Notes under the pieces: generated by a model
Seen by the model: only the letters and a program-made list of their open reading frames with translations
Told to the model about the DNA's origin: nothing
The model's database searches: none
Source of the DNA: Armatimonadota bacterium
GTDB lineage: Bacteria; Armatimonadota; UBA5829; DTJY01
Assembly (NCBI GenBank): GCA_963663705.1
Contig: OY760504.1
Coordinates: 1,224,063 to 1,288,062, forward strand
DNA: 64,000 nt
Direction: 5' to 3'
Made by a program: the position numbers and the translations under genes
In this document: positions 4,844-61,924 of the stretch, piece after piece
Numbering within the stretch: position 1 is the first letter of the stretch
How the letters are laid out: each line of letters begins with the position of its first letter

Positions 4844-4970
4844 TCATTCAGCTAGCGGCTTTTCCACATCCGATTCCGGATCGAACAATCCTGAATCGAG
4901 TAGCTTCAGGATCAGCCAGATCGACGAGAATGCTATCGCATTCTTGAGAGTATATGCTACTCATTGCGGA

Positions 4971-12754: not shown

Positions 12755-12991
12755 TGCAGTTAATAACCTATTTTGAAGAGACTGCTAATTATATCACCGT
12801 ATAGACAATCGGTCAATCCTATGTTTATGTTCGGTTTGCTGTGCTTTCAGCTGGCTATCGTCAAGGGCTGGAATTGCCGTTTGCAAAATATTTGGTGAAT
12901 TTCCGACACTTTGCAAATCTCTCCGGTAAGTAACCAGTGGAGGTAACTTCACGGCGCGCCGATGCTATAGACAAAAACACGGGAGATCACG
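12755..12991. promoter_or_regulatory. divergent early regulatory region between the repressor and the early operon
   Basis: Intergenic 237 bp carrying two copies of the palindromic octamer TTTGCAAA (within 12868-12917), an AAATATTT core, and the 15-mer CCGACACTTTGCAAA also found at 35159-35173. Confidence 0.45.
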
Positions 12992-14328: not shown

Positions 14329-16122
14329 ATGCTACTGCCTACCGCAAAAACACCGCCAAAGCCTGACCTTGCCGACCTGAGCGTACTGGTATACGGCCCA
14401 ACGAAGATCGGAAAGTGCCTCAAGGGTGATACCTGCATTATCGATCCTGTGACAGGGCGGCCACGGACTATCCGCGAGATCGTAAAAACGCGACAGGGGC
14501 CTGTTCATACTCTCGGAGAGGCCGGATGCATATCCTCAGTGGAGCCTTCGGCGTTCGTAGAGAATGAGCCGGAACAGCTATTCAGGCTTACTACTCAGAC
14601 CGGCAGGGTTATCGAGGCTACTGCAAGTCATCCATTCCTGACCAGAAGTGGATGGAGGCCGCTATCTGAACTAAGGGAGTGCGATAGGGTTGCCGTAATA
14701 GCTGAGTACCCACGGCTATTCGGCTGCACACGAACAGACAGTGATCAGCTTACCATACTTGCGTATCTGATTGCCGATGGCTCACTCGGCGGGAACAAAT
14801 CGCCTATCTTCACGAAGTGCGACCCGGAGGTAAGGCTGGACTTCGAATCATCAGTGGAACGTACCGGAGATGAGTGCATTGAGTACGAGAACACAAATGG
14901 CATCACTCATGTCAGGGTGCGTGGCAAACCTGGATTCCAGAACAATGTCATCGCGCTCCTCAGGGAGCAGGGACTGCAAGGACTGCGTGCACCTGATAAG
15001 TTCATCCCGGATTTCGTGTTCGGATTGCGAAGGTCGAAGCTTGCGCTCTTCCTGAACAAACTGTTCTCCTGCGATGGCAGCATGGAGGCAACGGGGAGGG
15101 TCAGCTACAGTTCTACGTCCATCCGAATGGTGCGCCAGGTCCAGCACCTGCTGCTCCGCTTTGGCATCGTGTCACTGCTGCACAACAGGTTTATCGACGG
15201 CGAACTCTACGGGGCAGAGATACTCGTTGCAGGCAAGACCGATGTGCTGAGGTTCATAGATCAGATCGGGTTCACCGGAGAGAAGGGCGTTAAGGCAGAA
15301 AGTGTTCGGGCTGCGCTCTACAACGTGCGGGCAGCAGAGACCCAACTCGATAAGGTAGGCCCTATCCTTTTCGACCGCATCAGGAGCATCGAGCCGACAA
15401 CCATCGAGTCAGTCTACGATCTCACGATCCCTGATACCCACAATTTCATTGCAAACGATTTTGTGGTCCACAACTCAACATGGTGCTCTCATGCCGATGT
15501 CGCGCTCTTTCTCTCGACCGAACCGGGGCTGAACTCCCTTGAGGTGTTCCAGACGCCCATACGATCCTGGGAGGAGCTGCTCGCCGCTTGTGGTGAGATC
15601 GCCGAGGGGAAACACCCGTTCAAGACGGTCATTATCGATACCATTGATAACGCCTTTCGCATGTGCGCCGACTACGTCTGCCGCAAGTTCAAGATCGAGC
15701 ATGAGTCGGATCTGGGCTACGGCAAGGGGTACTCGCTCATCGCAAATGAGTTTCAGCGCGTGCTAAACAAGCTTGCGTTTATGCCGTATGGGCTGTTTCT
15801 GATCTCCCATTCGCAGAACGTGGAGATCGAGACGCGCACGAGCAAGTACACGAAGACTGTGCCCACGCTTCCCGAGAAGGTAAGAAAGCTCGTGCTGGGA
15901 CTCGTGGATATGGTGCTCTACTGTGACATCGAAACAGGTGCAGGCTCGGATGGCAAGGTATCGGCACGCCGCGTCATGCGCACGAAGCCATCGATCTACT
16001 ACGAAGCCGGTGACAGAACCGTGAGGCTCCCGGACACGATTGACCTCGACTATGACAGATTCATCGAAGCATTCAAAACAGGCTTGAATAACAAAATCAC
16101 AAAGGAGACAGCAAGCAAATGA
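14329..16122 (+). CDS. Sak4-like AAA/RecA-fold ATPase interrupted by an intein
   Basis: Extein Walker A GPTKIGK|ST is split by a 353-aa insert. The extein totals about 244 aa. Confidence 0.7.
   Translation: MLLPTAKTPPKPDLADLSVLVYGPTKIGKCLKGDTCIIDPVTGRPRTIREIVKTRQGPVHTLGEAGCISSVEPSAFVENEPEQLFRLTTQTGRVIEATASHPFLTRSGWRPLSELRECDRVAVIAEYPRLFGCTRTDSDQLTILAYLIADGSLGGNKSPIFTKCDPEVRLDFESSVERTGDECIEYENTNGITHVRVRGKPGFQNNVIALLREQGLQGLRAPDKFIPDFVFGLRRSKLALFLNKLFSCDGSMEATGRVSYSSTSIRMVRQVQHLLLRFGIVSLLHNRFIDGELYGAEILVAGKTDVLRFIDQIGFTGEKGVKAESVRAALYNVRAAETQLDKVGPILFDRIRSIEPTTIESVYDLTIPDTHNFIANDFVVHNSTWCSHADVALFLSTEPGLNSLEVFQTPIRSWEELLAACGEIAEGKHPFKTVIIDTIDNAFRMCADYVCRKFKIEHESDLGYGKGYSLIANEFQRVLNKLAFMPYGLFLISHSQNVEIETRTSKYTKTVPTLPEKVRKLVLGLVDMVLYCDIETGAGSDGKVSARRVMRTKPSIYYEAGDRTVRLPDTIDLDYDRFIEAFKTGLNNKITKETASK
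14416..15474 (+). other. intein with LAGLIDADG homing-endonuclease domain inside the ATPase P-loop
   Basis: Block A CLKGDTCII starts right after the Walker A Lys. Block B TASHPF. LAGLIDADG motifs LAYLIADGS and LFLNKLFSCDGS. Terminal VVHN followed by Ser as the +1 residue. Confidence 0.8.
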
Positions 16123-23306: not shown

Positions 23307-23624
23307 TTATGCTGTATAGATATCAATTCCTTCTGTCAGTGCTTCTCTGTATACGAGGCCAGAGGTCTCTGCATAATTAGCCAGATCGGATACAGTAGCG
23401 ACGACTACGTCCACGTCAATCTTAGAACCAAGCAGTGCTCGGTAGATATCAGTCGTAGTTTTACGCCTATGGATTCCATCAGGCATCACAACAATGATAT
23501 CTATGTCACTATCCGGACGAGCCTGCCTACGCACAGTTGAGCCAAAGAGGATAATGCGCAGCGGATGGACAGCTTGTACAATCAGCTCTACTAGCTCTGA
23601 TGTTTTCTTATCTGCAATGTTCAA
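23307..23624 (-). CDS. minimal nucleotidyltransferase (MNT, NTP_transf_2)
   Basis: Motif LFGSTVRRQARPDSDIDIIVV; 105 aa; TTG start. Confidence 0.6.
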   Translation of the reverse strand: MNIADKKTSELVELIVQAVHPLRIILFGSTVRRQARPDSDIDIIVVMPDGIHRRKTTTDIYRALLGSKIDVDVVVATVSDLANYAETSGLVYREALTEGIDIYTA

Positions 23625-24278: not shown

Positions 24279-25157
24279 TTATAGTCTCTCAATCGCATCT
24301 TCGAGGATGTCGTCCGAGAGGTGTGTGTAGATCTCAGTTGTGGAGATATCCCGGTGGCCGAGCGCACGCTTGACGAGGAGCAGGTCGGATGTGTTTGCGT
24401 AGAGGTGAGTGGCGAAGGTATGGCGGAGTCCGTGCGGCGTGATCTTCTTTGAGATGCCGGCCTTTGCGAGCCAATAGGAAAGTCTCTGTGCTACCTGCCG
24501 ATTGCAAAGCCGGGTGTTGCGAGATGAGACAAAGAGCGCCGTGGTCTCGCTACCTGTGTGATGCCTGCGCTCTTTCAGGTAAGTCCGCAGCAACGTCCGA
24601 AGGGATGACTTGAGAAACTTGATCTGAGGCACTCCGCCCTTGCCCATGATGCGGATGTGCTTGCCGTCAAGGTCGACATCGTCGATATCGAGGTTCACCA
24701 GTTCCGAGAGTCGGATGCCGGTGCCGAGGAAGATCTCGAAGATCACTCTGTCACGACGTGCCAACGGATTCGAGCGGTCGTGCAGTTCCTTGAGCAGTCG
24801 TCTTTTCTCCGGCTCGGTGAGATACTCCGGCGGTGTTCGCGACAACCGTTTCATGGTGACCGAGCGTGCAGGATTGGAAGCAATGATCCCGGCATCCATC
24901 GCCCAGGCGAAGAAGGATTTTATTACCGCTTTCATACGATGCATTGTCGCGGGTGACTTGTGCCGCCCGTCGGGAGTGTTTGCGGCAGTCGGGTCGATCA
25001 GTGCGGCGTCGATTGTAGCTGGCGTTATATCGGCAAGGTCTATGCCTTTCAGAGCCCGCGCAAAGGTATGCAGGTCGCGCATGTAGGCGGAGATGGTATG
25101 CTCCGAGCGACCTTGCGCCCGGAGCCGTGTCTCGAAGTCAGCGACGGCAGAATTCAT
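24279..25157 (-). CDS. tyrosine recombinase (XerC/D or phage integrase family)
   Basis: C-terminal HGLRHTFATHL...LGHRDISTTEIYTHL with catalytic Tyr. SAM-like core-binding N-domain. The ORF track extends to 25316; M at about 25157 is preferred. Confidence 0.8.
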   Translation of the reverse strand: MNSAVADFETRLRAQGRSEHTISAYMRDLHTFARALKGIDLADITPATIDAALIDPTAANTPDGRHKSPATMHRMKAVIKSFFAWAMDAGIIASNPARSVTMKRLSRTPPEYLTEPEKRRLLKELHDRSNPLARRDRVIFEIFLGTGIRLSELVNLDIDDVDLDGKHIRIMGKGGVPQIKFLKSSLRTLLRTYLKERRHHTGSETTALFVSSRNTRLCNRQVAQRLSYWLAKAGISKKITPHGLRHTFATHLYANTSDLLLVKRALGHRDISTTEIYTHLSDDILEDAIERL

Positions 25158-25176
25158 GCTGCCGGAAGTGATGATT

Positions 25177-25563
25177 CTAATCGGTGCCTGTGCTACTGGC
25201 ATCCGGTACCTCCATCGTGTTCGTTGTGCTGTGACCCATGGGCATATCCTTTGGGAAGGGAAGCTTTGTGATATAGCCCTTGCCAAGCGTCCAGACGAGA
25301 AACATGCGGAAGACACGAACCGTTTTCTTTATGGTAGGTTCAGAGCGTTCCTTGCCGCTCGGCAGTTTCAGCAGCGCATCCGACTTCAGGAATCCTGCAA
25401 CATGCGGGATGAGTATCGCTGACAGCTTCTTCTCGGGACCGAAGTAGGCTTCGATCTGTTGTGCATCCTTGTTGTAAGTGTAAAGTGTCCGCTCGCTCTT
25501 CCCTTCAGCATTGAGGTGGCCGAGGTACTCCCGGAGAGCGCCTTGCAGTGTGATATCAGACAT
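25177..25563 (-). CDS. stand-alone integrase SAM-like (core-binding) N-domain protein
   Basis: 128 aa; ALREYLGHLNAEGKSERTLYTYNKDAQQIEAYFG resembles the phage integrase N-terminal SAM-like domain. Confidence 0.5.
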   Translation of the reverse strand: MSDITLQGALREYLGHLNAEGKSERTLYTYNKDAQQIEAYFGPEKKLSAILIPHVAGFLKSDALLKLPSGKERSEPTIKKTVRVFRMFLVWTLGKGYITKLPFPKDMPMGHSTTNTMEVPDASSTGTD

Positions 25564-27269: not shown

Positions 27270-28126
27270 ACTCTCGCGCTGTTAGCGAACGTCACGCGAA
27301 CAAACGCTAATGACGGTTAAGTCGATCTACAAATCATCACGATTTCGCCAGGAGACAGTGGGCTTGGATTTTTTGAATCGGCATCCCAGCATCGAATATG
27401 TGATACTTCCCATATAGCGGCCATCGCCCTCGGCTAGGAGTCCGTATGCTTTGGGGACAGGAGAATTGATGTCGCCAAAATCGATATTGTCATCGCCGCC
27501 ACCTCCAACTTCCCATCTCGATAGGTCATCAGTACATTTACCTACATAGAGATGACCATCAATCCGAGCGATTTGCCTGATGCCGCCATGCTTCAAATCA
27601 AGAATATACTCTTGTGACGGATCGACAAACCTTAGGTACGGTCCCTCTTGTTTGTTTCCTGGATACCAGTACACATCCACTGGAGTATCTCCGCAGCCGT
27701 CTATCGGCGCAATAAGGGTTGTGGAAGGGAAGGACTTTGTCTCTATTCTGATCTGCCTGTCGAACTCAGCAACAAGATGGTGTTTGGCTTGAACCATGAA
27801 CTTCACATGTCCAGATCTATCTGGAAGCTTGATATCGGTCGAAATCCAGTGTGTCATTGCCCAAGCTATTACAACCTGTCCTGCAATCAAGTATAGGCAT
27901 GGAAACACGACTATGGCGATTATGGCGCAGATTGCAAAACGAAGGAAAGGTCTTCGTCGTACAGTTTTAATAGGCTCTTCCACGTGCTTCTCCTAAATCG
28001 AATGATGACTACTTATGTGAGATTGTGGTCACTTATACAACTATAACCTTGTCTCAGTACAGCCGTCAAGGTCTACAGCTAGGACCTCTCGCGCCACTAT
28101 CGAGCGTGGCGGGAACAAACGCTAAT
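27270..28126. repeat. about 41-bp imperfect direct repeats flanking an opposite-strand moron
   Basis: Left copy CTCTCGCGCTGTTAGCGAACGTCACGCGAACAAACGCTAAT (27270-27311). Right copy CTCTCGCGCCACTATCGAGCGTGGCGGGAACAAACGCTAAT (28086-28126). Shared 14-mer GAACAAACGCTAAT. Confidence 0.55.
27327..27983 (-). CDS. membrane-anchored hypothetical protein (moron between terL and portal)
   Basis: 218 aa. N-terminal TM FLRFAICAIIAIVVFPCLYLIAGQVVIAWAM. Opposite strand to the surrounding late genes. Flanked by direct repeats. Confidence 0.5.
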   Translation of the reverse strand: MEEPIKTVRRRPFLRFAICAIIAIVVFPCLYLIAGQVVIAWAMTHWISTDIKLPDRSGHVKFMVQAKHHLVAEFDRQIRIETKSFPSTTLIAPIDGCGDTPVDVYWYPGNKQEGPYLRFVDPSQEYILDLKHGGIRQIARIDGHLYVGKCTDDLSRWEVGGGGDDNIDFGDINSPVPKAYGLLAEGDGRYMGSITYSMLGCRFKKSKPTVSWRNRDDL

Positions 28127-32600: not shown

Positions 32601-34235
32601 CTTGGCTGGCAGGGAAAGTGCCTTCCCATCGATGCAAACGACATTGAGGATCAGAATGCTCTCATATTCACAGAAAAGGTTGGCAAGGGAGAGCGAACCG
32701 TCGTCAAGATGAAACTCCGTCCGGAAGCAGAACCGAAGATCCTTCCATCCTTGAAGAAAGCGGAGAAACAGGCGGTAGTGAAGATTGGAGAAGCTATCCC
32801 TGAGGATGACTTTGCGAATGATATCCTCTCGGCGGTAAAAACAATCAACCACCATGCCAAGGACGGTAACTACAATCAGGGAACGCTCGATAAAGCTATA
32901 AAGCATATGAAGGCCCTTCGTGCGCTTGCCAAGTCGGACGATTCCGACGTACGCCGGATGGCGGAAACATACATCGGCTGGCTGGATAAGGTACAGCAGG
33001 CTGCATCAGGCAGACAGGGCATTGCTGAGAACTTCACACAGTACCTGAAGCAGTATAAACCTGCGGCAAAGAAAGGGTCCGAGGATCTTGGCTACACGGT
33101 CCGAAAATCGAAGGTGCTCCTTACCAAGCGCACAATAAGCAAAGGCGAACTTGCTGTCGAAAATGAAGCCGCTAACCTGACTGACATCTTCCGTGGGAAC
33201 TCAATGCCCGAAGGCGAACAGTACGAAATAGACTTTGGCGATGGTGTGAAGGCCGTCTACCGACCATGGAATGACAAGAACCTGTATGCTCATTCTGGTG
33301 AGTTTGAGATGGTAATACCGGAGAGGCCGGACCCAAAGAGCCTCAACAAGGCGATGGAACATATGGAAAAGATCGGGATTAAGGCGAACGTCGCCAGTCC
33401 AGAGGATGCCGAGATAATGTATCTTCACAAGCAGTCATATGCCACCAAGGTCGATAGTAACGTGGAGTACAAGAAGATGATGGCAGGCTTGGATCAGAGG
33501 AATGCGACGGGGACAGAGCGGGTTCAGGCCATGCGGGCGTTCTGGGAGAAACGGCTCGGTGTGACTGACATCACAAAGATGCCGGGATACGATCCGGTCG
33601 GCGAATACCAGATGGGTTTCAAAGACCGTTCGATCAAGGGCGGTTATCGGTACCAGTATCGCTTCGATCTATCGGATGCTGACATGGAAAAACAGATGGC
33701 TGGATACAGCCTGTATCATAACATCACGAACGGAAACTCGGTGAGCGGATTCCTAGATACAGCACTTGGGGACAACGGCGCGATGATCAGCACGGTTGAG
33801 AAGATACGCGCCGGTGTGCCGCCCGGAGGGATGTCCCCCGAAGCTGATATGCGAAGCGGTGGAGCGAGCTACATCTTCACACGCATCAAGAAATCGCCAG
33901 TGTCGGGAGGCGACAGGAGCACGGGTCTCTACTTCAAGAAACGGCTTCTGCGTCGAATGGATGCGATCAGCTATGACCATGATGCCTATGGCAAGGTGAT
34001 AGATAATTACGTCGTGGAACATCGTGGATTCGACCCGAAGGAGTGGAAACGGTTCTCAAAGAACGGCAGCAACGAGACGATCCTCAAATACTCGGTCACT
34101 CTGCTCGACAATTTGGAGAATATCGTCGTCGGCACGGAGAGTGAGCGTAAGACTGTGCTCGGTGTGTTCAAGAAGCATGGGGTATCCGTCCTTCCTGATG
34201 GTCGGAAGATAGAAGAAATAGTATTAAAGAGGTGA
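29640..34235 (+). CDS. MuF/SPP1-gp7 head-morphogenesis protein with long polymorphic C-terminal extension (HeH repeats, PI3/PI4-kinase-like domain, unknown region)
   Basis: N-terminal MuF domain with CPVCGALDGKQFD...PLCRC. Three tandem HeH/Rho_N-like repeats (LTVKQLQTIAKQNGISIARTKADFIKLL...). Kinase-like LFKPVGKSDDDF, ISNHDGHAKQ and GIDKGQ. About 500-aa C-terminus with no assignment. Confidence 0.7.
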   Translation: MKAGSTSVMCAIADVSQQAQAIREATDKSIMARDMYTEQVVSELTQSLKAAQDQVHKSLLGYKDIGSLPDSKLAAVSGLEKLNARIADTMKALRRDQSLMFRQASTASFRSGIYRGIEEFAAAQMPFYKDLTPDGIDKLTTSVFTLIDTDALEFMANYNLVLAGDVHRELADGIKKSILSGIATGKGVEGIVSDMGKVIEDKESFRHAGSKVFTKAQYRMETIARTEILRAHNQGRLKFHAQVGVQRLEWMTMADERTCPVCGALDGKQFDTDKFPNQPAHPLCRCSSLVAWPLVICGGELGSVAADSSPSCILPLQAIEQQAKQKSDEEKKLKYAFDSGEIGDLSALTVKQLQTIAKQNGISIARTKADFIKLLDAAEPGIHHGDMSGAILMAKVKQYNIAALRSKDDLVKLLADKQAVIKQAKAFEEAAKKAAPQGGLSNLTMVQLKEMAKDQGISLNLTKSEVIDMLDSLEPGVDHSDIAGKALLAAKQKHGIPPLKNKEQLVKVLEKSAGNQMAEQAKQQALEAAKQAAMNKAAQALSDATAKVVVPSSPTQYLQFLESVKGAEAELAKGTGLPQSVLCEQAKDIALKKKLFADQISALKVGELKELAKQTKVTHWQWSNKDELVTIFTETDANKIAAAKAGIEAKHAKWAEKHLSGKSGKAKPNEQKPVSTPSAPESKITGSPTFTKKGSEFDAADAVWAESGKPSKFKYDGKANVGGAHEKEFWLDENGEKWLFKPVGKSDDDFIAYGEEAAYKIGRLIDPDAVEVRTVILKGRVGSMQKWRTGLAEKYDFSNMDVTDLSPDEVAQVQREHVLDWLISNHDGHAKQFLRAKDGKVYGIDKGQLFKFLGSDKLNADYHPNQVCGEQEPFYNTVFRAARDGNVKFDPSVTMRYIREVEKIADDDYLALLRPYVEGRFGGDDLKKKAFYDLALSRKHSLRDDFESFYVDVLHKPGFRFDDAIPEISVAGRIGKAEEEIIHDAERLGWQGKCLPIDANDIEDQNALIFTEKVGKGERTVVKMKLRPEAEPKILPSLKKAEKQAVVKIGEAIPEDDFANDILSAVKTINHHAKDGNYNQGTLDKAIKHMKALRALAKSDDSDVRRMAETYIGWLDKVQQAASGRQGIAENFTQYLKQYKPAAKKGSEDLGYTVRKSKVLLTKRTISKGELAVENEAANLTDIFRGNSMPEGEQYEIDFGDGVKAVYRPWNDKNLYAHSGEFEMVIPERPDPKSLNKAMEHMEKIGIKANVASPEDAEIMYLHKQSYATKVDSNVEYKKMMAGLDQRNATGTERVQAMRAFWEKRLGVTDITKMPGYDPVGEYQMGFKDRSIKGGYRYQYRFDLSDADMEKQMAGYSLYHNITNGNSVSGFLDTALGDNGAMISTVEKIRAGVPPGGMSPEADMRSGGASYIFTRIKKSPVSGGDRSTGLYFKKRLLRRMDAISYDHDAYGKVIDNYVVEHRGFDPKEWKRFSKNGSNETILKYSVTLLDNLENIVVGTESERKTVLGVFKKHGVSVLPDGRKIEEIVLKR

Positions 34236-34714
34236 TAATGAAAGACTATGTAATCGGTGAAAAAGCAAGGCTTCAGACCCTGTTCGATGAGTTTAACATG
34301 GGCGGTTCATTTATGGTTATGCACGAGGGGAACTATGATCCGCTCAAATTCGGGCTGATCGACAGCTGCGTGGTAACGCGGGTGGCACCACACTTCGATG
34401 CCCAGGGCAACGTCACGAAGACCGATTTTTGGCTTCTCTGGAAATCGGTCGGCTACAATAACGGCTTCCAGCACGCGCATACCATCAAAGTGGTTGACTG
34501 GAGTCAGGACGACACATATCTCATCGATCTGATTGATGACCGGGGCCGACGGCACCATGTCGAACTGATAATGGATGTTTCTGAGCCGGATTATGTAGTC
34601 TCCTGGCGAAAATGGCAGAGGTACAAAGCCGATAACAGGGCGATGTTCGAACAGATTGACACGCAACTACTGGAGGAACATCTTTCCATTGCGGAGGGCT
34701 GGGATGCGGATTAG
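34232..34714 (+). CDS. hypothetical protein (candidate immunity/partner of the MuF toxin)
   Basis: 160 aa, translationally coupled to the MuF gene stop. Confidence 0.35.
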   Translation: MIMKDYVIGEKARLQTLFDEFNMGGSFMVMHEGNYDPLKFGLIDSCVVTRVAPHFDAQGNVTKTDFWLLWKSVGYNNGFQHAHTIKVVDWSQDDTYLIDLIDDRGRRHHVELIMDVSEPDYVVSWRKWQRYKADNRAMFEQIDTQLLEEHLSIAEGWDAD

Positions 34715-35033
34715 ATATGTGATCGAGTATGCAATAAGAGACCGGGATTCGAACCCGCGCTACGAACCGATAGGTGTGTGGGTACAGGGACCAGGCCCTG
34801 GGCTGGATATCGAGATGGCGTATTTGCCCGGCAATGATGAGTATCAGGAGGAAGCGGATTGGGTGATCAATCGGCTGGTGGAGAACGGTGTTCGGTCACT
34901 GCCGGATGATTTTCTGGAGTATCACCGGGCGACCATGTCGCCATATCGAGGGATGTTCGGGGAGAGCGTGGAGGCGGAAGCGTATTCCACAATCCAATTG
35001 TGCACGGCGACGATTCTCGCCTCATTGAAGTGA
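34704..35033 (+). CDS. hypothetical protein (second small gene after the MuF toxin)
   Basis: About 109 aa from MRIRYVIEY. The ORF track gives 34656. Confidence 0.3.
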   Translation: MRIRYVIEYAIRDRDSNPRYEPIGVWVQGPGPGLDIEMAYLPGNDEYQEEADWVINRLVENGVRSLPDDFLEYHRATMSPYRGMFGESVEAEAYSTIQLCTATILASLK

Positions 35034-39214: not shown

Positions 39215-39713
39215 TCTGGTGGCGATGCTTCGCACAGATCTCGCCGATCCTAATGCAGACCGCTTTTCTGATGTAGTGCTTGAGCGGTGTATCCTGAAGT
39301 CGGTCGCCTCCGTGGCCCGTGATCTGGAGGTCGATATGAGCGTTTCAGGCAGCGACACCCTGAATTGTCCAACTCAGGCTGAAACGCTTGAGATGCTCAT
39401 ACTCCAGTCGCAGATCGAGGCGTGCAGGTTCATGCGAGCGGCAACGGCGAATGCCTTCTCGTTCTCATCAGGCGATAAGCGGGTCGATAAGACCAGTCAG
39501 CCGGAGCACTGGGCGAAGCTCGAATCGGATCTGTCGGCCACGTACAGGATGCGCCTCCACGATCTAAGGCCGGATGGCATGCCGGAGGATGATTATATCA
39601 TCACCCCGCGTGAACTGAGACCGGTGATATTTGAACAGGGAGTCCACCATTGCAGGAACCACTTCTCTCGCGGAGCGAACGGATCGACGCCGCATCACAG
39701 GTGCGAGGACTGA
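39201..39713 (+). CDS. hypothetical protein (head-tail connector region)
   Basis: 170 aa; position only. Confidence 0.3.
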   Translation: MALVDLVAMLRTDLADPNADRFSDVVLERCILKSVASVARDLEVDMSVSGSDTLNCPTQAETLEMLILQSQIEACRFMRAATANAFSFSSGDKRVDKTSQPEHWAKLESDLSATYRMRLHDLRPDGMPEDDYIITPRELRPVIFEQGVHHCRNHFSRGANGSTPHHRCED

Positions 39714-44376: not shown

Positions 44377-44528
44377 TTCAGGATGCGTTCTTCCTCGGTT
44401 ACGGCGGCCTGCATTGGGGCTATGCCGAGGTGGCGCATCTGCCGATTCGGGTTCGCAAAGAGTTTGTGGAATCCCTTCAGAATCAGTTGGACTTTGAAAA
44501 GCAGGAAATCGAAAGACAGCGCAGGTAG
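44352..44528 (+). other. programmed -1 frameshift site and extension of the tail assembly chaperone (GT-like product)
   Basis: Slippery heptamer T_TTT_TTA at 44352-44358 in the zero frame of the chaperone. The -1 frame reads FFIPRSTLIQDAFFLGYGGLHWGYAEVAHLPIRVRKEFVESLQNQLDFEKQEIERQRR and stops at 44526-44528, just before the tape-measure start at 44532. Confidence 0.6.
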
Positions 44529-44531
44529 CAT

Positions 44532-47462
44532 ATGAATGATCTCGGACTCGGCATAATCGTATCCCTGAAAGATGCCTTCACGCAGAACGCATCCCGCATC
44601 CAGTCATCCATGCAGTCGCTCGATTCATCCATCGATATGGCAGGCGCGAATATGACCCGCAACCTCGGCCTGATCGAGAAAGGGACGATGATGATCGGGG
44701 CGGGATTGGCGCTCCTTGCTATACCAACCGCATTGGTGGCGTCTACAGCTGCAACACAGCGAGCACTCGGAGAGCTTGCATCTGTCGGCGTAAAGGACTT
44801 TCGGGCGATGGAAGATGCGGCTGAGTCGTTCACGAACCAGTGGGCCGGAGCGAACAAGGCCGAGTTCATCACCGCTGCGTATGATGTGAAGTCGGCGCTT
44901 GCAAGTCTATCAGATACGGCTGTCGGAACGTTTGCGGCTATGGCTGCACTCACCGCAAAAGCGACTAAGGCCACGACACAGGAGATGGTGGAGACTTTCA
45001 CGACCGCATACGGAATCTTCAAGCCGATGATGGCCGAGATGTCCGATATGGACTGGGCGAAGATGTTCTCAGGGGCGCTCTCGGAAACGGTTGGTGTCTT
45101 TAAGACCACTGGACCGCAGATGGCTGAAGCGATAAAGAATATCGGCGCGATTGCGGCGGCATCGAATGTGCCGCTCCAGGAACAAATGGCGATCCTCGGG
45201 CAGCTTCAGACGACCATGCCGGGATCGGAAGCAGGTACGCTCTACAAGGCATTTATGCTCAAAGTTGCGGAAGCAGGGAAAGAGCTTGGAGCATCGTTTA
45301 TCGGTACAAATGGCCAGCTTAAGGGAATAGTCCCGATCCTTGAGGAAGTTAAACGGAAGTTCCCGGATCTATCGCAGGCAATGGTACAGGTGAAACTTAA
45401 GAAGGCGTTCGGCTCTGACGAGGCAGTGCGTTTTCTGCTACAGATGTCGATGGGACTTGGCCAGCTTCAAGGCAATATCAAACTTATCGAACAGGCAATG
45501 AAAGGCGGTACTGCCGTAACCCTTGAGATGGCAAAAGCCATGAACATGGACATTGGCTCGCAGTTCACCGTAGTTAAGCAGCAGGCCCAGAACCTTGTGG
45601 AGATACTCGGCCGGACGCTTCTTCCTGTGGTGACTCCCGTATTCCAGTCCGTATCACGGTTCATCCTTCACCTGCAGGGCATGGCCAGGTCGATGCCGGG
45701 TGTCACGCGGGTAGTGCTCACCCTCTGCGCGGTATTCGGGGTTGTGCTCGTTGCTGTTGGCAGCGTCATTTCGGTGATAGGCACAGTCGGCATAGTCCTT
45801 CCGGCAGTCGAGGCGGGGCTTGCCGCAATGGGCACAACCCTTGCTGGGGTTGGAGGCGCAATCTCCGCCGCATTCCTGCCAGTGACAGCCATTATCGCGG
45901 GTGTGATCATTGCGGTTGTACTGCTTAAAAAAGCCTGGGAGACGAACTTCGGCGGCATACGGGACGTGGTATCGAATGCCTGGAATAAAGTTTCGATGGT
46001 CTTCCAAGGCATAAAGGCGCTTATTGGTTCGCTCTCCGGTGGCACAGGCCAGATGTCGTCGGAACTCGCCCAGAAACTGCAGTCGGCTGGACTCATGCAG
46101 TTCGTGACAGGTGTGTTCCAAGTCTACTACCGAATACGTGAATTTCTATCCGGATTCTGGCAGGTGCTTACGGCAAGCTTTGGCAAAGTTCGCGGCATAA
46201 TAGAGCCCGCGGTCAAGACGCTGGTCGGTGCCTTTGCACCACTTGGGGATGCGTTCAGATCTGTACTCTCCGTATTCGGGATAGCCGCAAATCAAATCGA
46301 CGCATCATCCTTCAGGAACTTCGGGAAGATCCTCGGATCAGTCCTTGGCATAGTGGTGCAGGTCGGAGCATACATCATTAAGTTTTTGGTCTACCCGCTT
46401 GCGCTTGCAATCAGGGTTATCGCACTGGTAATACAGGGCGCCGTATGGCTCGGGAAGGCGATTGCGAATGCACTTCTAACGGCCGCACCATACGTCTACC
46501 GGTTCTTCCTGCCACTCAGAATGCTTATGGAAGCGTTCCGTCTTGTAGGCAGCATTGTCTATACGGTCTGGCAGATGATTACAGGCAACGTCTCGGTAAT
46601 TGGCGGTCTGCGGTCCATCGGGAGTGCCGTAGCGAATTATCTGGCAACGCCATTTCTGTGGGCCAGAGATGTTGTGTCCGGTGTCTGGGCTTTCATACGC
46701 GATGTATTTTCATCGATCGGCAGATATGCAGGTAGTGCCGCCGGTGCAGTGAAGGGCGCTATATCAGGCGCATTCTCGTCTGTTCTCTCTGCCGCATCGA
46801 ATCTTGCCTCATCAGCATTTCAGAGCGGACGGTCGATAATGACCACACTCGCATCCGGCATACGGTCGGCTGTCATGGCTCCTTACGAGGCGGCAAAGTC
46901 TGTGCTCGCGAAAGTGAGAAGACTGCTACCGTTCTCCGATGCGAAGGAAGGCCCGCTCTCGGCACTTACGGCAAGCGGTATGGCAATGCTTCATGCCTTT
47001 TCCGTCGGTATTGATAGGGCATCGGAGATTCCAGCAAAGGCAGTGTCGAGATCACTTTTGTCAGCACGGCGGATAATGAATGCGTCTCTTATGTCGGGCG
47101 TAGTTACTGGGACACTGGCACTCTCGCCAACGATTACTGGTGCGATGCCAAGCCTATCTACTGCGCCGGTGCCTGTAGTGACTTCGGTGTCTGCCGATCA
47201 GCCTGTGGACAACAACGTCCAGTCGCAGACAAGGCTTCTTGCAGAGACCAGAGGTGTCGCATCTCGGGGTACTGGCCTTACAACTACCGGAAGAACGGAT
47301 GATCTGCAGTCGGTAATATCCGCGCTATGTGCAAAGCTCGATTCGATCTCCGAACGCCCGATTGAGATTCAGGTTACAACAACCCTCGACGGGCGAAAGA
47401 TAGCGCAGTCGGTATACAAAGATATGCGTGAACGCAAGGTCAAGAATTATGAAACCATGTGA
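44532..47462 (+). CDS. tail tape measure protein
   Basis: 976 aa, Ala/Gly-rich with multiple hydrophobic segments, downstream of the chaperone frameshift. Confidence 0.8.
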   Translation: MNDLGLGIIVSLKDAFTQNASRIQSSMQSLDSSIDMAGANMTRNLGLIEKGTMMIGAGLALLAIPTALVASTAATQRALGELASVGVKDFRAMEDAAESFTNQWAGANKAEFITAAYDVKSALASLSDTAVGTFAAMAALTAKATKATTQEMVETFTTAYGIFKPMMAEMSDMDWAKMFSGALSETVGVFKTTGPQMAEAIKNIGAIAAASNVPLQEQMAILGQLQTTMPGSEAGTLYKAFMLKVAEAGKELGASFIGTNGQLKGIVPILEEVKRKFPDLSQAMVQVKLKKAFGSDEAVRFLLQMSMGLGQLQGNIKLIEQAMKGGTAVTLEMAKAMNMDIGSQFTVVKQQAQNLVEILGRTLLPVVTPVFQSVSRFILHLQGMARSMPGVTRVVLTLCAVFGVVLVAVGSVISVIGTVGIVLPAVEAGLAAMGTTLAGVGGAISAAFLPVTAIIAGVIIAVVLLKKAWETNFGGIRDVVSNAWNKVSMVFQGIKALIGSLSGGTGQMSSELAQKLQSAGLMQFVTGVFQVYYRIREFLSGFWQVLTASFGKVRGIIEPAVKTLVGAFAPLGDAFRSVLSVFGIAANQIDASSFRNFGKILGSVLGIVVQVGAYIIKFLVYPLALAIRVIALVIQGAVWLGKAIANALLTAAPYVYRFFLPLRMLMEAFRLVGSIVYTVWQMITGNVSVIGGLRSIGSAVANYLATPFLWARDVVSGVWAFIRDVFSSIGRYAGSAAGAVKGAISGAFSSVLSAASNLASSAFQSGRSIMTTLASGIRSAVMAPYEAAKSVLAKVRRLLPFSDAKEGPLSALTASGMAMLHAFSVGIDRASEIPAKAVSRSLLSARRIMNASLMSGVVTGTLALSPTITGAMPSLSTAPVPVVTSVSADQPVDNNVQSQTRLLAETRGVASRGTGLTTTGRTDDLQSVISALCAKLDSISERPIEIQVTTTLDGRKIAQSVYKDMRERKVKNYETM

Positions 47463-47938
47463 GGTTAAAGTTGGATAGCAGGCAGATCACAACCGGGCAT
47501 CTGGTAGACGTGGTAACCAGGGAGTCCCTCGAATTCCAGTACAACCCGGACGAGATCACCGATGATAAGAGCACCGACTTCGCCACCATCAAAGTGCCCG
47601 GGATGAGCCATCCGAGGTATCAGTACGTTGCAGGAGAGGCACGTCGAATTAACTTTAGGCTCACATTCTTCAAGGGTGAGGTAAAGAAAAAGGTTGCGTG
47701 GCTCCAGTCGCTTCTATATCCGCAGCACGAGAAAACAATGCTCCGGAATGCTCCGCACAAGGTTCTGTTCTTCTTCGGCGATCTGTATGCTGGTGTTCCC
47801 TGTATAGTGCGGCAGGTCAGGGTCAGATATTTTCATATGTTCGATGCATCAAATCTGCTGCCTCAGCATGCGGAGGTAGAGATCACCCTTGAGGAGATTG
47901 TGAATAAGTCTGTTAGTTACAGCGAGGTGAGGAAATGA
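47459..47938 (+). CDS. tail protein (P2 gpU-like by size and position)
   Basis: 159 aa, immediately after the tape-measure gene. Confidence 0.4.
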   Translation: MRLKLDSRQITTGHLVDVVTRESLEFQYNPDEITDDKSTDFATIKVPGMSHPRYQYVAGEARRINFRLTFFKGEVKKKVAWLQSLLYPQHEKTMLRNAPHKVLFFFGDLYAGVPCIVRQVRVRYFHMFDASNLLPQHAEVEITLEEIVNKSVSYSEVRK

Positions 47939-48225
47939 TCAACGAATCGTCGAGATATGCGAATTGTGTTCTCTATGTGGATGGCTCGGATGAGTTCATC
48001 GGCAGCCGAACCCTAATCGATACGTTGCCGGAACCGGACGATATCTTCCACACGATTCAGGAAGGTGACCGCATTGATCTGCTAGCATACAGATATCTGG
48101 GAGATGCATCGCTTTGGTGGATTATCTGCGATTACAACTACATATTCTTTCCGCTCGATATGGAAATTGGGGCAGTCCTCAGAATTCCATCCATGGGGCA
48201 TTTACAGATGAGATTATCAATATGA
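47935..48225 (+). CDS. LysM-domain tail protein (P2 gpX-like)
   Basis: LysM-like GDRIDLLAYRYLGDASLWWII. Confidence 0.5.
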   Translation: MINESSRYANCVLYVDGSDEFIGSRTLIDTLPEPDDIFHTIQEGDRIDLLAYRYLGDASLWWIICDYNYIFFPLDMEIGAVLRIPSMGHLQMRLSI

Positions 48226-48253
48226 CTCGACTAGACTTTGATGTCTGGACAAG

Positions 48254-48862
48254 CTATTTGTCATTTACGAAAGTGTCCAGCAGTTCACGGAACGAAGGTG
48301 CTATATGGCGAACAATATCAATTTGGCCAGCGCACAATATTCCTTCGTGGTCTATCTGAACTATTGGGCAATCGCCACCAGACCCACGGTTCATATCAAA
48401 ACAGATTGGGTCGTAATTTACAGTCTCAGGCTCACCAAACTGAATGAATCCTCCAGGTAATAAAGCCTTACAGAGCCCTGGATCGCAAAATATCCTTTTT
48501 CTGAGTTCAAAGTAATCCGTTCCTTCAGGTGTATTGCCAAAGAAGAAAATATCTCCTGCTTCGAACCCAGGGAAGATATAGCGTGTTATCAGCGACCTAT
48601 ATGCTATTGGAAACCTGTGCCCTAGCTTCTGTTCAAGCGGTTCTACCCAGTCCTCATTGGCAAAGGGCTTGATCATCCAATCGCAGTAACTATATTCATC
48701 CGGCTCGCCTACGAGGACGCTAGGAGGCGTTTCATAGATATCGATAGCAATGGGCTCGCGATAGCCAGCATTCACCTTGGCAATAAAAATATCTACCAAG
48801 GTATCTATATCCTCGTTCATAACCGTTTTGGGCAGTCTATTGGTGGTACGTGATTCCTTCAT
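48254..48862 (-). CDS. SMI1/KNR4 (SUKH-1)-like immunity-type protein, opposite-strand moron
   Basis: 202 aa. N-terminal WVEPLEQKLGHRFPIAYRSLITRY and later ICFDMNRGSGGDCPIVQIDHEG resemble the SUKH-1 pattern. Sits on the minus strand between the plus-strand X and D tail genes. Confidence 0.45.
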   Translation of the reverse strand: MKESRTTNRLPKTVMNEDIDTLVDIFIAKVNAGYREPIAIDIYETPPSVLVGEPDEYSYCDWMIKPFANEDWVEPLEQKLGHRFPIAYRSLITRYIFPGFEAGDIFFFGNTPEGTDYFELRKRIFCDPGLCKALLPGGFIQFGEPETVNYDPICFDMNRGSGGDCPIVQIDHEGILCAGQIDIVRHIAPSFRELLDTFVNDK

Positions 48863-48947
48863 ATTCTCTGTATACCCATGCCAAGTTGCTTATTGCAAGA
48901 ATTATAGCATAACAGTTCGGTATATGGAATCATCTTGAGGATACGCA

Positions 48948-50213
48948 ATGATTGATGAACGCTTTGCCCCAACCTTCATAATCGAAATTGAAGGCCATCG
49001 GCTCTCGAAAGACATAACACGCGAGATCACCTCCTTTGTCTTTGAAGATAACGAGGAAGAACTCGATGTGATGGAGGTATCGGTTACGGACAGATATCTC
49101 CAGTTCGTAGACGATCCGCTTTTTCAGGAAGGCAATGAGATAGTCGCCCGGTTCGGCTACGTCGACAATCTCTCGCCAAAGAAGATTGCAGTCATCAAGG
49201 AGATCGACTACGACTTCCCGGAGAGCGGCGAACCGACAATCAGGATCAGGGCTTACGATAGAGGGCACAAACTCACCGGCAGTCAGATTCAGCGCGTCTG
49301 GCAGAAACCCGCTCCCGGGATACTGTATTCAGAGATCGCGGAACAAATCGCTCACGAACATGGTTTGTCTCCGGTGATAGAGACTACGACTGGTCGGCAT
49401 CTGCGGGTCGCCCAGGGGAATATGTCCGACGCGGCGTTCCTTAAGGGTCTGGCATTGAAGTCGAGAAGCGCTGGTGGTACTGCCGGTTACGTGTTCTTCG
49501 TACAGGACAACGAATTGCACTTCCACTCAAGGAAACTCCATACACGACCGGCGCTCATATTGGAGTACTTCACCGATAAAGATGGTGTGCTCAGATCGTT
49601 TGCGCCATCGACGCAAACCCAAACGGTGAAAGGTACCGGCACGGAGACAAAGAGTATCGGCGTCGATCCAAGGAAGAAACGCCATGTCGAACACAAGGCC
49701 AACGATGCCAGCACAACAGAGCGTACTGTTCTAGGTAAGAAGACCTACCTGGTAGATGGCAAGTACCGTAAGCAGGAGTCGGGCAGGATAATCCCGCACT
49801 ACGGTCACGGGCGTGAGCATGCGGAGAGCCGCTTCAAAAGCGCCGAACTGCGGCAGGTCGAAGCGACTGCCGTTACCGTCGGAATCCCGGCGCTTGTTGC
49901 CAAGCAGAACATAGAGATCAGGGGAGTCGGCAGGAAGTTCTCAGGCATCTACTACTGTACATCAGTCAGGCATATCTTCGAGAACGGCTATTCGTGTGAA
50001 CTGAAGCTCAAACGGAACGCCCTTGGCAAGGGTACAGGCGCTAAGGCATCGGATACCAATGGTAAGAGGAACGAGCAGTCGGCGCCAAAGCATTCGAAGA
50101 AGAAACCGGCACATGCCAGGCCCGGAACACAAAGCTCTGCGCCAAGGCCGGTTAAACCAAAACCGAAGATGGTCAGAATCGATGCGAACACGGGTCGCAT
50201 CATCAGCAAGTAA
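48948..50213 (+). CDS. tail protein D (late control gpD family)
   Basis: 421 aa. RFGYVDNLSPKKIAVIKEIDYDFPESGEPTIRIRAYD is typical of gpD. Confidence 0.6.
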   Translation: MIDERFAPTFIIEIEGHRLSKDITREITSFVFEDNEEELDVMEVSVTDRYLQFVDDPLFQEGNEIVARFGYVDNLSPKKIAVIKEIDYDFPESGEPTIRIRAYDRGHKLTGSQIQRVWQKPAPGILYSEIAEQIAHEHGLSPVIETTTGRHLRVAQGNMSDAAFLKGLALKSRSAGGTAGYVFFVQDNELHFHSRKLHTRPALILEYFTDKDGVLRSFAPSTQTQTVKGTGTETKSIGVDPRKKRHVEHKANDASTTERTVLGKKTYLVDGKYRKQESGRIIPHYGHGREHAESRFKSAELRQVEATAVTVGIPALVAKQNIEIRGVGRKFSGIYYCTSVRHIFENGYSCELKLKRNALGKGTGAKASDTNGKRNEQSAPKHSKKKPAHARPGTQSSAPRPVKPKPKMVRIDANTGRIISK

Positions 50214-50237
50214 TCAAATACCAAGGAGGCAAATCAC

Positions 50238-50549
50238 ATGCACGTTAGTGACACTATCAGGTTCATCATTGAGAATAGGGACGTACTCATCACCTTTCTC
50301 ATCGCTCTTATAGCGGTAGTAAAGCTTACTGCCTGGGGAAAAGCGCAGTCATCTGCGCTCGACGCGGTGGTCGGCGTAATCGAAGGGCTTGGGGCGCGCA
50401 ATATTAAGGCGGGAGTCTCGGATGCGGTCAGCGATCTTCCTGCAGGCGCACAGGACGCTATCGGTGATTCCGTGGCAAAGGCAGACCCTAAGAAGGAATC
50501 ATCGAGCCTCTTCACCCGAATCGTGCGCGAAGTCTTTCGAGGGATATAG
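50238..50549 (+). CDS. small membrane-anchored hypothetical protein
   Basis: 103 aa; N-terminal hydrophobic helix VLITFLIALIAVVKLTAW. Confidence 0.3.
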   Translation: MHVSDTIRFIIENRDVLITFLIALIAVVKLTAWGKAQSSALDAVVGVIEGLGARNIKAGVSDAVSDLPAGAQDAIGDSVAKADPKKESSSLFTRIVREVFRGI

Positions 50550-50552
50550 GCG

Positions 50553-51230
50553 ATGCTCGAATTTGAAAACGAGGAGCAGAGAGATCGGTATGCCGGAAAG
50601 TGGTATGGGAAGTATCGGGCATTCGTTCGCGATCACCATGATCCGGAACGCCTGGGAAGATGCCGCCTTGAAATACCGGCGGTACTTGGGGTCGGCGAAG
50701 ATAACTGGTCTGACTGGGCAGCACCCTGTTTCCCATACGGCGGCATCGACAACTGCGGAATGTTCCTCGTTCCCGAAGAAGGTGCATCGGTATGGGCTGA
50801 GTTCGAGGGCGGTGATCCGCAGTATCCGATATGGAGCGGCGTCTGGCTCGCGATGAGCAATCCTGGCGAACAGCCGGACGAGGCTAAGCGGCTCTGTGAG
50901 ATCGCAACGTGTTCAAATTGCCCCGATGCACGCGAACACGCAATGAACCGAGCCGATAACATTGAACACAAAAAGTATCACACACATCCGCCGTACTACT
51001 GTCCAAAGATGAAGGTGCTCGCAAAGACAGCGCTCGGCCATACGATTCTATTCGATGACAAGGACGATACCGCCTGCATACGGATTGTCGATTCGTCCGG
51101 ACAGGAGATACTGCTTGAAAGCGGCAAAAGAGTGCAGATCACCGACAAGGCGGGCAGTAGCCTGGCAATGGACTCTGCAACCGGAAATATTATCATCCGC
51201 TCAGCTGGCAAAGTCCTGATCAACCCATGA
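50553..51230 (+). CDS. baseplate spike/hub protein gpV
   Basis: OB-fold motif FLVPEEGASVWAEFEGGDPQYPIWSGVW is typical of the Phage_base_V family. Confidence 0.65.
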   Translation: MLEFENEEQRDRYAGKWYGKYRAFVRDHHDPERLGRCRLEIPAVLGVGEDNWSDWAAPCFPYGGIDNCGMFLVPEEGASVWAEFEGGDPQYPIWSGVWLAMSNPGEQPDEAKRLCEIATCSNCPDAREHAMNRADNIEHKKYHTHPPYYCPKMKVLAKTALGHTILFDDKDDTACIRIVDSSGQEILLESGKRVQITDKAGSSLAMDSATGNIIIRSAGKVLINP

Positions 51231-51245
51231 CATAGAGAGGAAACT

Positions 51246-51623
51246 ATGACAGAACCAACAGAATGCCAGGGGCCCGGAAAGTGCGGCTGGGTAGAGAGCG
51301 AGCGAATGCTCGCAAAGACCTTCGACCAGTGGCGTGCGGAGTTTCGGGAAATCCTAGAAGATCATCGCAGGGACATACAAAGCCGCCTTGAAACTATCGA
51401 ACGGAGAATCGAACTGAAATCGGATAAGGAATCGGTCGACCTGGTCGTTCGGAGCATCAACGATGAACTCGCGAGGCATGCAGACGATATCAAATCACTA
51501 CGGTCGGAGATCGGTTGCAAGGTAGGCAGCGACACACTCTGGAAGATGGTCGGCCTCGTAGTAGCGCTCGGCGGGATAATCTCCGGCATAGTGAGCGCCA
51601 TCATAGGATTCTACAGAAAGTAG
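51246..51623 (+). CDS. coiled-coil protein with C-terminal TM helix (XhlA-like)
   Basis: 125 aa. Central coiled coil and C-terminal VGLVVALGGIISGIVSAIIGF. Confidence 0.3.
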   Translation: MTEPTECQGPGKCGWVESERMLAKTFDQWRAEFREILEDHRRDIQSRLETIERRIELKSDKESVDLVVRSINDELARHADDIKSLRSEIGCKVGSDTLWKMVGLVVALGGIISGIVSAIIGFYRK

Positions 51624-51630
51624 GTGTGCT

Positions 51631-51897
51631 ATGGGAAGACCATCTGCACGACTTGGCGATACATCGAGCCACGGTGGAACCATTATCACGGGCTCTGACA
51701 CTACTTCAATAAACGGCAAACCTGCCGCAAGGGTTGGCGATCTCCACACATGTTCGATACCGGGTCATGGGGTCACATCTATAACATCAGGAAGCAAGAG
51801 CGTCATGATAGAAGGCAGCTCAGCCGCACGTGTCGGTGATTCCGTCGGCTGCGGTGCGGTCATCGTTTCAGGCAGCCCGGACACGGAGGTTGATTAA
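51631..51897 (+). CDS. PAAR-repeat spike-tip protein
   Basis: Repeated GDxxxHGG / ARVGD / GCGAV motifs across 88 aa. Confidence 0.75.
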   Translation: MGRPSARLGDTSSHGGTIITGSDTTSINGKPAARVGDLHTCSIPGHGVTSITSGSKSVMIEGSSAARVGDSVGCGAVIVSGSPDTEVD

Positions 51898-52307
51898 TGA
51901 ATACGGATTTCCTTGGCAAAGGGCTAAAGTTTCCGCTCGAGTTCCACAGGCGTTCGGGAGGCGCTCGGATATCGACCGCAACGTCGGCCGACCATGCGCA
52001 CATACACGAGAGCATCCACCAGATCCTCGCAACGCGTCTCGGCGAGCGGCTCATGAACCCGGAGTTCGGTTGCCGACTCATGGATCTGGTATTCGAGCCG
52101 GACGGGCACGTGCTTCGAGGGCTCATCCGTCACTACGTGATAGATGCCCTCGATCGATGGGAGAAGCGGATAGTTGTGACTGATGTGACCTTTGACGATT
52201 CGAACGACGAAGGAAACATCAACATTCAGATCTCTTACAGAATCATCGATTGTCAGGTAGATGGGAACATGATTTACCCGTTCTGCCGCGAGATTACAGG
52301 AGCATAA
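51897..52307 (+). CDS. baseplate protein gpW / gp25-like
   Basis: IHESIHQILATRLGERLMNPEFGCRLMDLVFEP matches the GPW_gp25 signature. Confidence 0.75.
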   Translation: MNTDFLGKGLKFPLEFHRRSGGARISTATSADHAHIHESIHQILATRLGERLMNPEFGCRLMDLVFEPDGHVLRGLIRHYVIDALDRWEKRIVVTDVTFDDSNDEGNINIQISYRIIDCQVDGNMIYPFCREITGA

Positions 52308-61434: not shown

Positions 61435-61474
61435 TTGCCCTAACCCCTTTGAAACTCTGCGTTCAGATGCCTAA

Positions 61475-61924
61475 TTATATCACACCCCCATCCAGCTTAT
61501 ACGCCTTTCTCTTGAAATCATCGCTCTGATAGCGAATGAGCGTTTCCGTGACAACCGCTGTGCCGCAGCCGGGATAACTCTCGATATCCACTGAATCCGC
61601 TGATTTTACGATGAGTGAAAGCCCGTATCCGCCTATCTGCCCGGGCACAGGTTCCTTGACGCTCGTCCTGTCATAGCCCTTTCCTGAATCGGTGATGGCG
61701 ATAATCATGCGGTCGGCGAAGTATTGCAGATGCACGGTGTAGGTCGAGCGGTCGGTGTATGCATACTTGACTACGTTCGAACAGCCCTCAGAGATGATGG
61801 TCGCCACACGGTCGACATCTTCATCGATCACGCCCATTTCCTTTAGCGGATGGATTGCAATGCGCCGGATGATCGGAACGAGCGAGCTGTCGTTTGTTAC
61901 TTCGAGTGCGGTTTCAAAAATCAT
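61475..61924 (-). CDS. HATPase_c-type anti-sigma regulatory kinase-like protein (RsbW/SpoIIAB-like)
   Basis: 149 aa. Pattern SEGCSNVVKYAY ... DSGKGYD ... GGYGL is typical of GHKL ATPase anti-sigma factors. Confidence 0.6.
   Translation of the reverse strand: MIFETALEVTNDSSLVPIIRRIAIHPLKEMGVIDEDVDRVATIISEGCSNVVKYAYTDRSTYTVHLQYFADRMIIAITDSGKGYDRTSVKEPVPGQIGGYGLSLIVKSADSVDIESYPGCGTAVVTETLIRYQSDDFKRKAYKLDGGVI

Follow-up and report, generated by a model that had tools for sequence, protein, structure and literature searches.

A SUKH-1 gene carried as cargo between two baseplate genes of a prophage from an uncultivated Armatimonadota-like host

The window analysed here, a stretch of 64,000 nucleotides from an Armatimonadota genome assembly, contains a prophage whose plus-strand tail operon is interrupted by a single gene on the minus strand. 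The original prediction, which was made from the sequence, described this 202-aa ORF as a SUKH (SMI1/KNR4-like) immunity-type gene embedded between tail genes X and D, carried by the prophage as a moron, and proposed that it could protect the lysogen from contact-dependent toxins or act as antidote to the phage's own MuF protein. This raises the question of whether such an ORF is a gene at all, how it came to lie inside a tail operon and what its product could do there. The arrangement itself is as described: both flanking genes are on the plus strand, with a gpX-like LysM protein on the left and a gpD/gp27-like hub on the right (Table 1).

Table 1. Position and assignment of the features discussed in the text
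Feature	Position	Strand	Basis or remark
SUKH-1 (SMI1/KNR4) coding sequence, 202 aa, ATG start	48254..48862	-	ORF listing, Pfam, family alignment, AF2, Foldseek
Inserted cargo segment, 722 bp, gpX-like stop to gpD-like start	48226..48947		low GC, junction comparison
Left border, gpX-like LysM-type baseplate protein, 96 aa	47935..48225	+	phrog_7145, E=5.8e-22
Right border, gpD/gp27-like baseplate hub, 421 aa	48948..50213	+	phrog_52 tail protein, E=2.5e-35
T6SS/CIS-like baseplate organisation	50553-52307	+	gp27-like hub, gp5-like spike, PAAR tip, TssE/gp25-like wedge
Extended -10 promoter-like element TGCTATAAT	48901..48909	-	39 nt upstream of the SUKH ATG; consensus match only
TGNTATAAT sites	12788-12796, 39592-39600, 48901-48909, 61474-61482	-	pattern search
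MuF protein, 1531 aa	29640-34235		MuF domain at aa 173-287 and long C-terminal extension
MuF last 332 aa (aa ~1200-1531)	33237-34232		ADP-ribosyltransferase-like in its predicted fold
orf160	34232-34714		start overlaps MuF stop; kept alongside the MuF C-terminus in most relatives
orf125	34656-35033		with orf160 directly downstream of MuF; likewise kept in most relatives that have the MuF C-terminus
218-aa ORF, GC3 0.46	27327-27983	-	between large terminase and portal
105-aa ORF	23307-23624	-	PADLOC candidate defence family PDC-S09, E=1e-11
Replication-module AAA_24 ATPase	14329-16122	+	split by an intein that contains a homing-endonuclease domain of the LAGLIDADG type
Dam-type N6-adenine DNA methyltransferase fusion, 806 aa	35223-37643	+	phrog_27806, full length
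tmRNA gene	1674-2024	+	prophage left end
Large serine recombinase	5378-7015	-	prophage left end
Tyrosine-type integrase	24279-25316	-	just ahead of the terminase

The gene and its product

Antisense ORFs as long as this one are frequent in the GC-rich operon (for example 44483..45109), so that ORF length alone is no proof of a gene. Its status as a real, intact gene rather than a chance antisense ORF is confirmed by its 36 homologues (E=3e-86 to 4e-21), which a family profile extends to more than 160, by a Pfam match above the cut-off, by a confidently predicted fold and by the retention of 48 of the 49 family positions that are conserved at 80% or more. The layout of gpX end, SUKH gene and gpD start is 100% identical in an independent Logan assembly (L001), which rules out an assembly artefact.

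The Pfam match is to PF09346 (SMI1_KNR4), with 28.3 bits against a gathering score of 25.4 (E=3e-6) over positions 2-124 of the 125 in the profile, and many of the homologues are already annotated with this family; matches to SUKH_6 and SUKH_5 were sub-threshold. The canonical SUKH domain corresponds to aa 68-196. In front of it lies a conserved helical N-terminal region of about 50 aa, and a basic tail is present too; conservation in the close family (alignment A1) covers the ~65 residues ahead of the match to Pfam. The AF2 model (pLDDT 90.7, pTM 0.85) contains helices at residues 73-80, 86-94, 128-134 and 191-200 and strands at 100-102/105-107 and 139-145/153-156/167-170/183-188. This predicted order, several helices with two short strands and then four, agrees with the SUKH core as Zhang 2011 describes it, an alpha+beta fold in which four helices are combined with a beta-hairpin and a four-stranded meander. 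When the model was compared with the PDB by Foldseek, YobK (2PRV) was the top match (E=1.4e-4), followed by Listeria 2ICG, Syd (3FFV), yeast Knr4 and FBXO3, all of them founding members of the SUKH superfamily, and nothing significant was found outside it; the best full-length superposition was that on Syd 3FFV (TM 0.58/0.63 over 206 columns). The family profile retrieved from the PDB sequences only YobK (E=0.025, near-significant) and 3D5P, a single-sequence search of the PDB with the protein returned noise only, and there was no match to the Syd Pfam family at E<=1, so that the resemblance to Syd is structural only. PHROGs, PADLOC and NCBIfam gave no match for the protein. The Pfam score, the YobK profile match and the exclusively SUKH top Foldseek matches uphold the SUKH/SMI1-KNR4 identity that had been proposed, and by family and predicted fold the protein is a non-enzymatic SUKH-1 member. 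Two peptides had been quoted in favour of this identity and both occur in the translation, WVEPLEQKLGHRFPIAYRSLITRY over aa 72-95 and ICFDMNRGSGGDCPIVQIDHEG over aa 153-174, although the GG stressed in the second falls in a variable loop.

The conserved motifs of the family lie elsewhere (YDPICFD and PIVQIDHE in alignment A1), and D151, C154 and D171-H172-E173 are the invariant polar residues of a subfamily that is uniformly ~185-205 aa long, with 9 invariant and ~25 near-invariant residues. A profile scan of 1.84 billion representatives recovered 879 clusters, 172 of them at E<=1e-30, composed of full-length members and of shorter ones without the N-terminal ~45 residues.

The cargo slot between gpX and gpD

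The segment inserted between the two baseplate genes deviates in composition from its surroundings. Its GC content is 0.44, against 0.54-0.55 for the flanking tail module, GC drops from 0.52-0.58 to 0.42-0.46 over positions 48050-49100, and the GC3 of the SUKH coding sequence (0.45) is below that of the tail, head and MuF genes (0.59-0.69) and nearer to that of the host-side ORFs (0.41-0.54). The gpX-like protein on the left is kept at 50-70% identity across related prophages, its match to Pfam Phage_tail_X (E=0.009) being below threshold. The hub on the right matches NCBIfam VgrG_rel with its N-terminal half (E=2.9e-19, below the curated cut-off) and is followed by genes for a gp5-like spike, a PAAR protein and a TssE/gp25-like protein. 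The organisation of this baseplate is T6SS/CIS-like, and its PAAR tip is minimal, with 88 aa and without toxin extension.

At the DNA level, positions 47400-50300 had no match among the phages of GenBank (distant mode) or in genomes of E. coli. Related prophages were gathered with the hub protein, yielding 24 IMG/VR and 66 genome loci that were compared over 13 kb of the tail region. The closest hub matches (75% aa identity) are in Armatimonadota MAGs, and further ones are in Desulfosarcina, Syntrophus, Bryobacterales, Nitrospirales, Phycisphaerae and other groups. In ~45 loci the gpX stop and the gpD start are separated by 0-165 bp, often 6 bp, which corresponds to an empty junction; in 26 loci that contain unrelated cargo the spacing is 345-4365 bp, compared with 722 bp in the prophage studied here. 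The occupied slots hold ~40 unrelated ORF families, mostly of lower GC than the flanks, and 28 of the 40 large cargo ORFs are on the opposite strand. Among them are AbiEii (PADLOC, 2e-98), an AAA_14+DUF4143 protein (PDC-S01, 6e-105), PDC-M41A (1e-80) plus DUF5131, HTH+HEPN_AbiU2, a 989-aa STAND-like NTPase (a weak, sub-threshold nSTAND3 match), a GHKL ATPase, HTH+Peptidase_M78, Trypsin_2 with Endonuclease_NS, a PAPS reductase and methyltransferases. The gpX(LysM)/gpD(hub) junction is thus a hotspot of variable cargo, rich in conflict systems, in a prophage lineage that extends over many phyla.

None of the ~90 related loci contains a SUKH homologue (tblastn, 13-kb tail regions), and this cargo is unique to the present prophage among its relatives. 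The deviant GC and GC3, the opposite orientation and the junction that is empty or differently filled in the relatives show that the SUKH gene is a moron, a captured accessory gene in a temperate contractile-tailed prophage, as had been claimed. The situation is similar to that in P2-like phages and P4 satellites (Rousset et al. 2022, PMC9122126), in which a fixed slot also receives varied, mostly conflict-related cargo of deviant composition and independent orientation; it differs from it in the lineage, which is uncultivated (Armatimonadota-like and in many other phyla), in the junction, formed here by a LysM gpX and a hub gpD, and in the cargo, since the SUKH protein is not an anti-phage system recognised by PADLOC.

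From the alignment it seemed plausible that the gpX/gpD junction is duplicated on either side of the insert, but the left-versus-right repeat scored no better than shuffles and the duplication was rejected; a 'stranded ancestral gpD start' at 48213-48236 was significant against one of five relatives (9/1000) and is a weak hint. Two Bryobacterales prophages carry in the same slot a signal-peptide Endonuclease_NS (NucA-type) and a Trypsin_2 protease (L056 ~4166-5986, L063 ~3069-5986); Zhang 2012 names NucA-type toxins as one of the classes that Imm-SUKH neutralises, and the presence of such a gene in the slot may be a coincidence.

Expression, relatives and possible roles of the SUKH protein

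The promoter-like element upstream of the gene is of the extended -10 type and its -35 is weak by eye. A generic sigma-70 scan of this upstream region found nothing, a miss explained by the poor -35, and the extended -10 came from a pattern search. The TGNTATAAT pattern occurs four times in the 64-kb window against 1.47 expected, every time on the minus strand, and three of the four sites are 34-40 nt upstream of minus-strand start codons, those of an S24/LexA-like prophage repressor (ATG 12754), of the SUKH gene and of a 115-aa ORF at the prophage right end. From their sequence and placement, these sites may be a small set of promoters expressed in lysogeny, and the candidate promoter of the SUKH gene, being of the same type and spacing as that of the repressor, provides the strongest, if indirect, argument for its expression in the lysogen. 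No intrinsic terminator or hairpin was found between the convergent gpX and SUKH stops, and late transcription must read antisense through the SUKH gene to reach the hub gene.

In all 12 contexts examined (32-67% identity to the SUKH protein) the homologue is a single-copy, solo gene in ordinary chromosomal surroundings, with glycoside hydrolases, glutamate synthase, tRNA-modification enzymes or regulators as neighbours. None of the 12 has an RHS, LXG, CdiA, nuclease or deaminase toxin beside it, none is in a phage, and arrayed or diversifying SUKH paralogues were found in none of these contexts; two pairs are syntenic across samples (P0024/P0028 and P0009/P0012). A profile scan of IMG/VR found no viral contig encoding a SUKH relative and BFVD contained no structural match to the protein. 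Since the 12 homologues examined are all chromosomal and no relative is in either viral collection, the copy studied here is a rare phage capture of a chromosomal gene. Prophage-borne SMI1/KNR4 genes are listed among the cargo of S. meliloti prophages; a literature search on SMI1/KNR4 immunity in prophages gave no match. The solo genes, their uniform length and their partial synteny are unlike typical toxin-immunity cassettes, and the uniform length together with the invariant polar residues forms a pattern that points to a single conserved partner and away from an arms race against polymorphic toxins.

The proposal that the SUKH protein is the cognate immunity for a toxin domain of the phage's MuF protein can be judged from that protein and its relatives. 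Beyond its MuF domain the protein indeed has a long C-terminal extension, which matches phrog_6577 (function not known). Its last 332 aa are found at 35-82% identity and over their full length in relatives across phyla, with invariant R, H, S-T, R and E residues, and the six best PDB matches of the AF2 model of this part (pLDDT 80.9) are to the ADP-ribosyltransferases DarT and SopF, with modest fold scores (E about 0.02, probability 0.98-0.99). Sequence searches of the PDB, Pfam and NCBIfam with this C-terminus were negative. In its predicted structure the domain looks ADP-ribosyltransferase-like, and MuF-ART toxins require immunity (Alexei 2024). As read from its alignment, however, the tip is conserved and not polymorphic, given the identity that many relatives retain over the full length, and the same C-terminus exists where the slot is empty (3300027863_001680, 83 bp; 3300038805_000522, 10 bp) or holds other cargo (a 511-kb Armatimonadetes contig and OZ252241); a SUKH homologue was detected neither in their fetched 13-kb tail loci (tblastn) nor in any contig of IMG/VR (profile scan). 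The SUKH gene is 14 kb downstream of the MuF gene and on the opposite strand, and the adjacent position is filled by orf160 and orf125, which match no known family and would be the natural immunity candidates if the MuF tip is toxic. Characterised MuF toxins have their immunity genes adjacent (Jamet 2017; Bxa/Bsi/BAH, Alexei 2024), SUKH is absent from Jamet 2017, and ART toxins pair with Imm41, ARH (ADP-ribosylhydrolases) or My6CBD rather than with SUKH. The prophage thus resembles the known MuF toxin-immunity modules in having a MuF protein with an ART-like C-terminus followed by small ORFs, and differs from them in a SUKH gene that is distant, on the opposite strand and not co-occurring with a MuF tip that is conserved. 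The lack of co-occurrence, the adjacent small ORFs, the adjacency reported in the literature and the immunity families of ART toxins make the MuF antidote very unlikely, and this part of the original prediction is not supported. Separately from this, the MuF protein contains SAP/Rho_N-like repeats, and its residues ~700-960 resemble by eye a PI3/4-kinase-like catalytic loop (HDGHAKQF...GIDKG).

The reading tentatively preferred is that of an orphan immunity gene, which by analogy is a possible explanation of the locus: a moron with its own promoter in the lysogen, whose product would neutralise an incoming toxin. The gene would be transcribed alone from the extended -10 promoter, antisense to the late tail operon; the SUKH fold, as it does elsewhere, would clamp a partner protein in a surface cleft and block it; and the partner would be a protein toxin arriving from outside, for example a competitor's effector of the nuclease or deaminase type, so that the lysogen would benefit as do the hosts of orphan immunity genes on other mobile elements. 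This reading draws on the precedent of the superfamily, whose members are immunity proteins against many nuclease and deaminase toxins (Zhang et al. 2011, 2012), and orphan immunity genes on mobile elements are known to protect against T6SS toxins (bioRxiv 10.1101/471110). The locus shares with these an immunity-type gene without toxin on a mobile element, and it differs from the acquired interbacterial defence clusters in being a single gene, whereas those are arrays with demonstrated T6SS toxin partners. Further points in its favour are the conflict-related cargo that relatives carry in the slot, the intact ORF and the candidate promoter of the repressor's type. The toxin-free contexts of all 12 homologues and the absence of an adjoining toxin here, where the neighbours are baseplate genes, count against it. 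So do the uniform length and invariant polar residues of the subfamily, the lack of relatives in IMG/VR and BFVD, the negative searches of PADLOC, PHROGs and NCBIfam, and the terminator that was looked for and not found. The comparison with YobK of B. subtilis (2PRV) and the other Imm-SUKH proteins shows the same tension, because PF09346 and the predicted fold are shared, whereas no toxin gene is adjacent here or in the homologue contexts, an extra conserved N-terminal region of ~50 aa is present, and the family is solo, uniform and partly syntenic while Imm-SUKH genes are arrayed and fast-evolving.

The solo, partly syntenic and highly conserved nature of the subfamily favours a protein that binds a conserved cellular or phage partner, as Syd binds SecY and Knr4 acts as a hub, and that the prophage would use for superinfection exclusion, anti-phage defence or host manipulation. 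E. coli Syd (3FFV), a SUKH-2 protein of similar length, is encoded by a lone chromosomal gene, has a single conserved partner in the cell and gives the best structural superposition, and the slot holds mostly anti-phage systems in the relatives. The protein is SUKH-1 by Pfam, however, and its likeness to Syd is that of a predicted structure; it matches neither the Syd family nor PADLOC, and the SUKH-1 members of known bacterial function are immunity proteins (Zhang 2011), so that a conserved partner is considered somewhat unlikely. The wider proposal that an undescribed, phylum-spanning LysM/hub hotspot has captured an N-extended, never toxin-linked SUKH-1 protein with a conserved non-toxin partner, used for exclusion or defence, is unlikely when taken as a whole. 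The cleft could also serve the phage itself, if the protein were made on infection or induction and inhibited a nuclease-type effector of host defence, given that many nuclease folds are inhibited by SUKH proteins and that eukaryotic DNA viruses have recruited SUKH domains (Zhang 2011); this is improbable for a gene that is antisense to the late operon and has a candidate promoter of the lysogeny repressor's type, arguing for expression in the lysogen, that related phages manage without and that has no viral homologues in IMG/VR or BFVD. A similarly low probability is assigned to a functionless passenger, a host gene of recent capture that serves neither phage nor lysogen: the gene is found in this prophage and in none of its relatives, but its ORF is intact with nearly all conserved positions retained, a promoter-like element stands at the expected distance and the slot is filled elsewhere by functional-looking defence genes.

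SUKH immunity proteins, morons and phage cargo hotspots were each already known, and the present locus is a new instance of them in an uncultivated phage lineage. Should the protein shield lysogens against the toxins of competitors, as in the preferred orphan-immunity reading, this would be a lysogenic conversion by an orphan immunity gene in an uncultivated, probably Armatimonadota-like host, tying phage mobility to interbacterial warfare; a conserved partner, if true, would mean a non-immunity role for a bacterial SUKH-1 protein. The gpX/gpD hotspot, present in dozens of prophages from many phyla, could be mined for new defence genes, and a SUKH-1 subfamily of more than 170 clusters that is toxin-free in the contexts examined questions the automatic annotation of SUKH domains as immunity proteins. 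These two, the hotspot and the large toxin-free subfamily, are the results most worth following.

Other features of the prophage

Several further features of the element were observed in the window (Table 1). Searches of Pfam, PHROGs, PADLOC and NCBIfam gave no match for the 218-aa ORF between the large terminase and the portal, which may be a second moron, and the 105-aa ORF assigned to a candidate defence family lies beside the small terminase/integrase region. The Dam-type methyltransferase fusion is located between the MuF gene and the scaffold/capsid genes, and is seemingly split or duplicated in two of the related loci (L103 and L105). The replication module includes the intein-split ATPase. 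At the left end, the tmRNA gene is ~3.4 kb from the large serine recombinase, and a second integrase, of the tyrosine type, is found inside the element, which could correspond to two recombinases in one element or to two juxtaposed elements.
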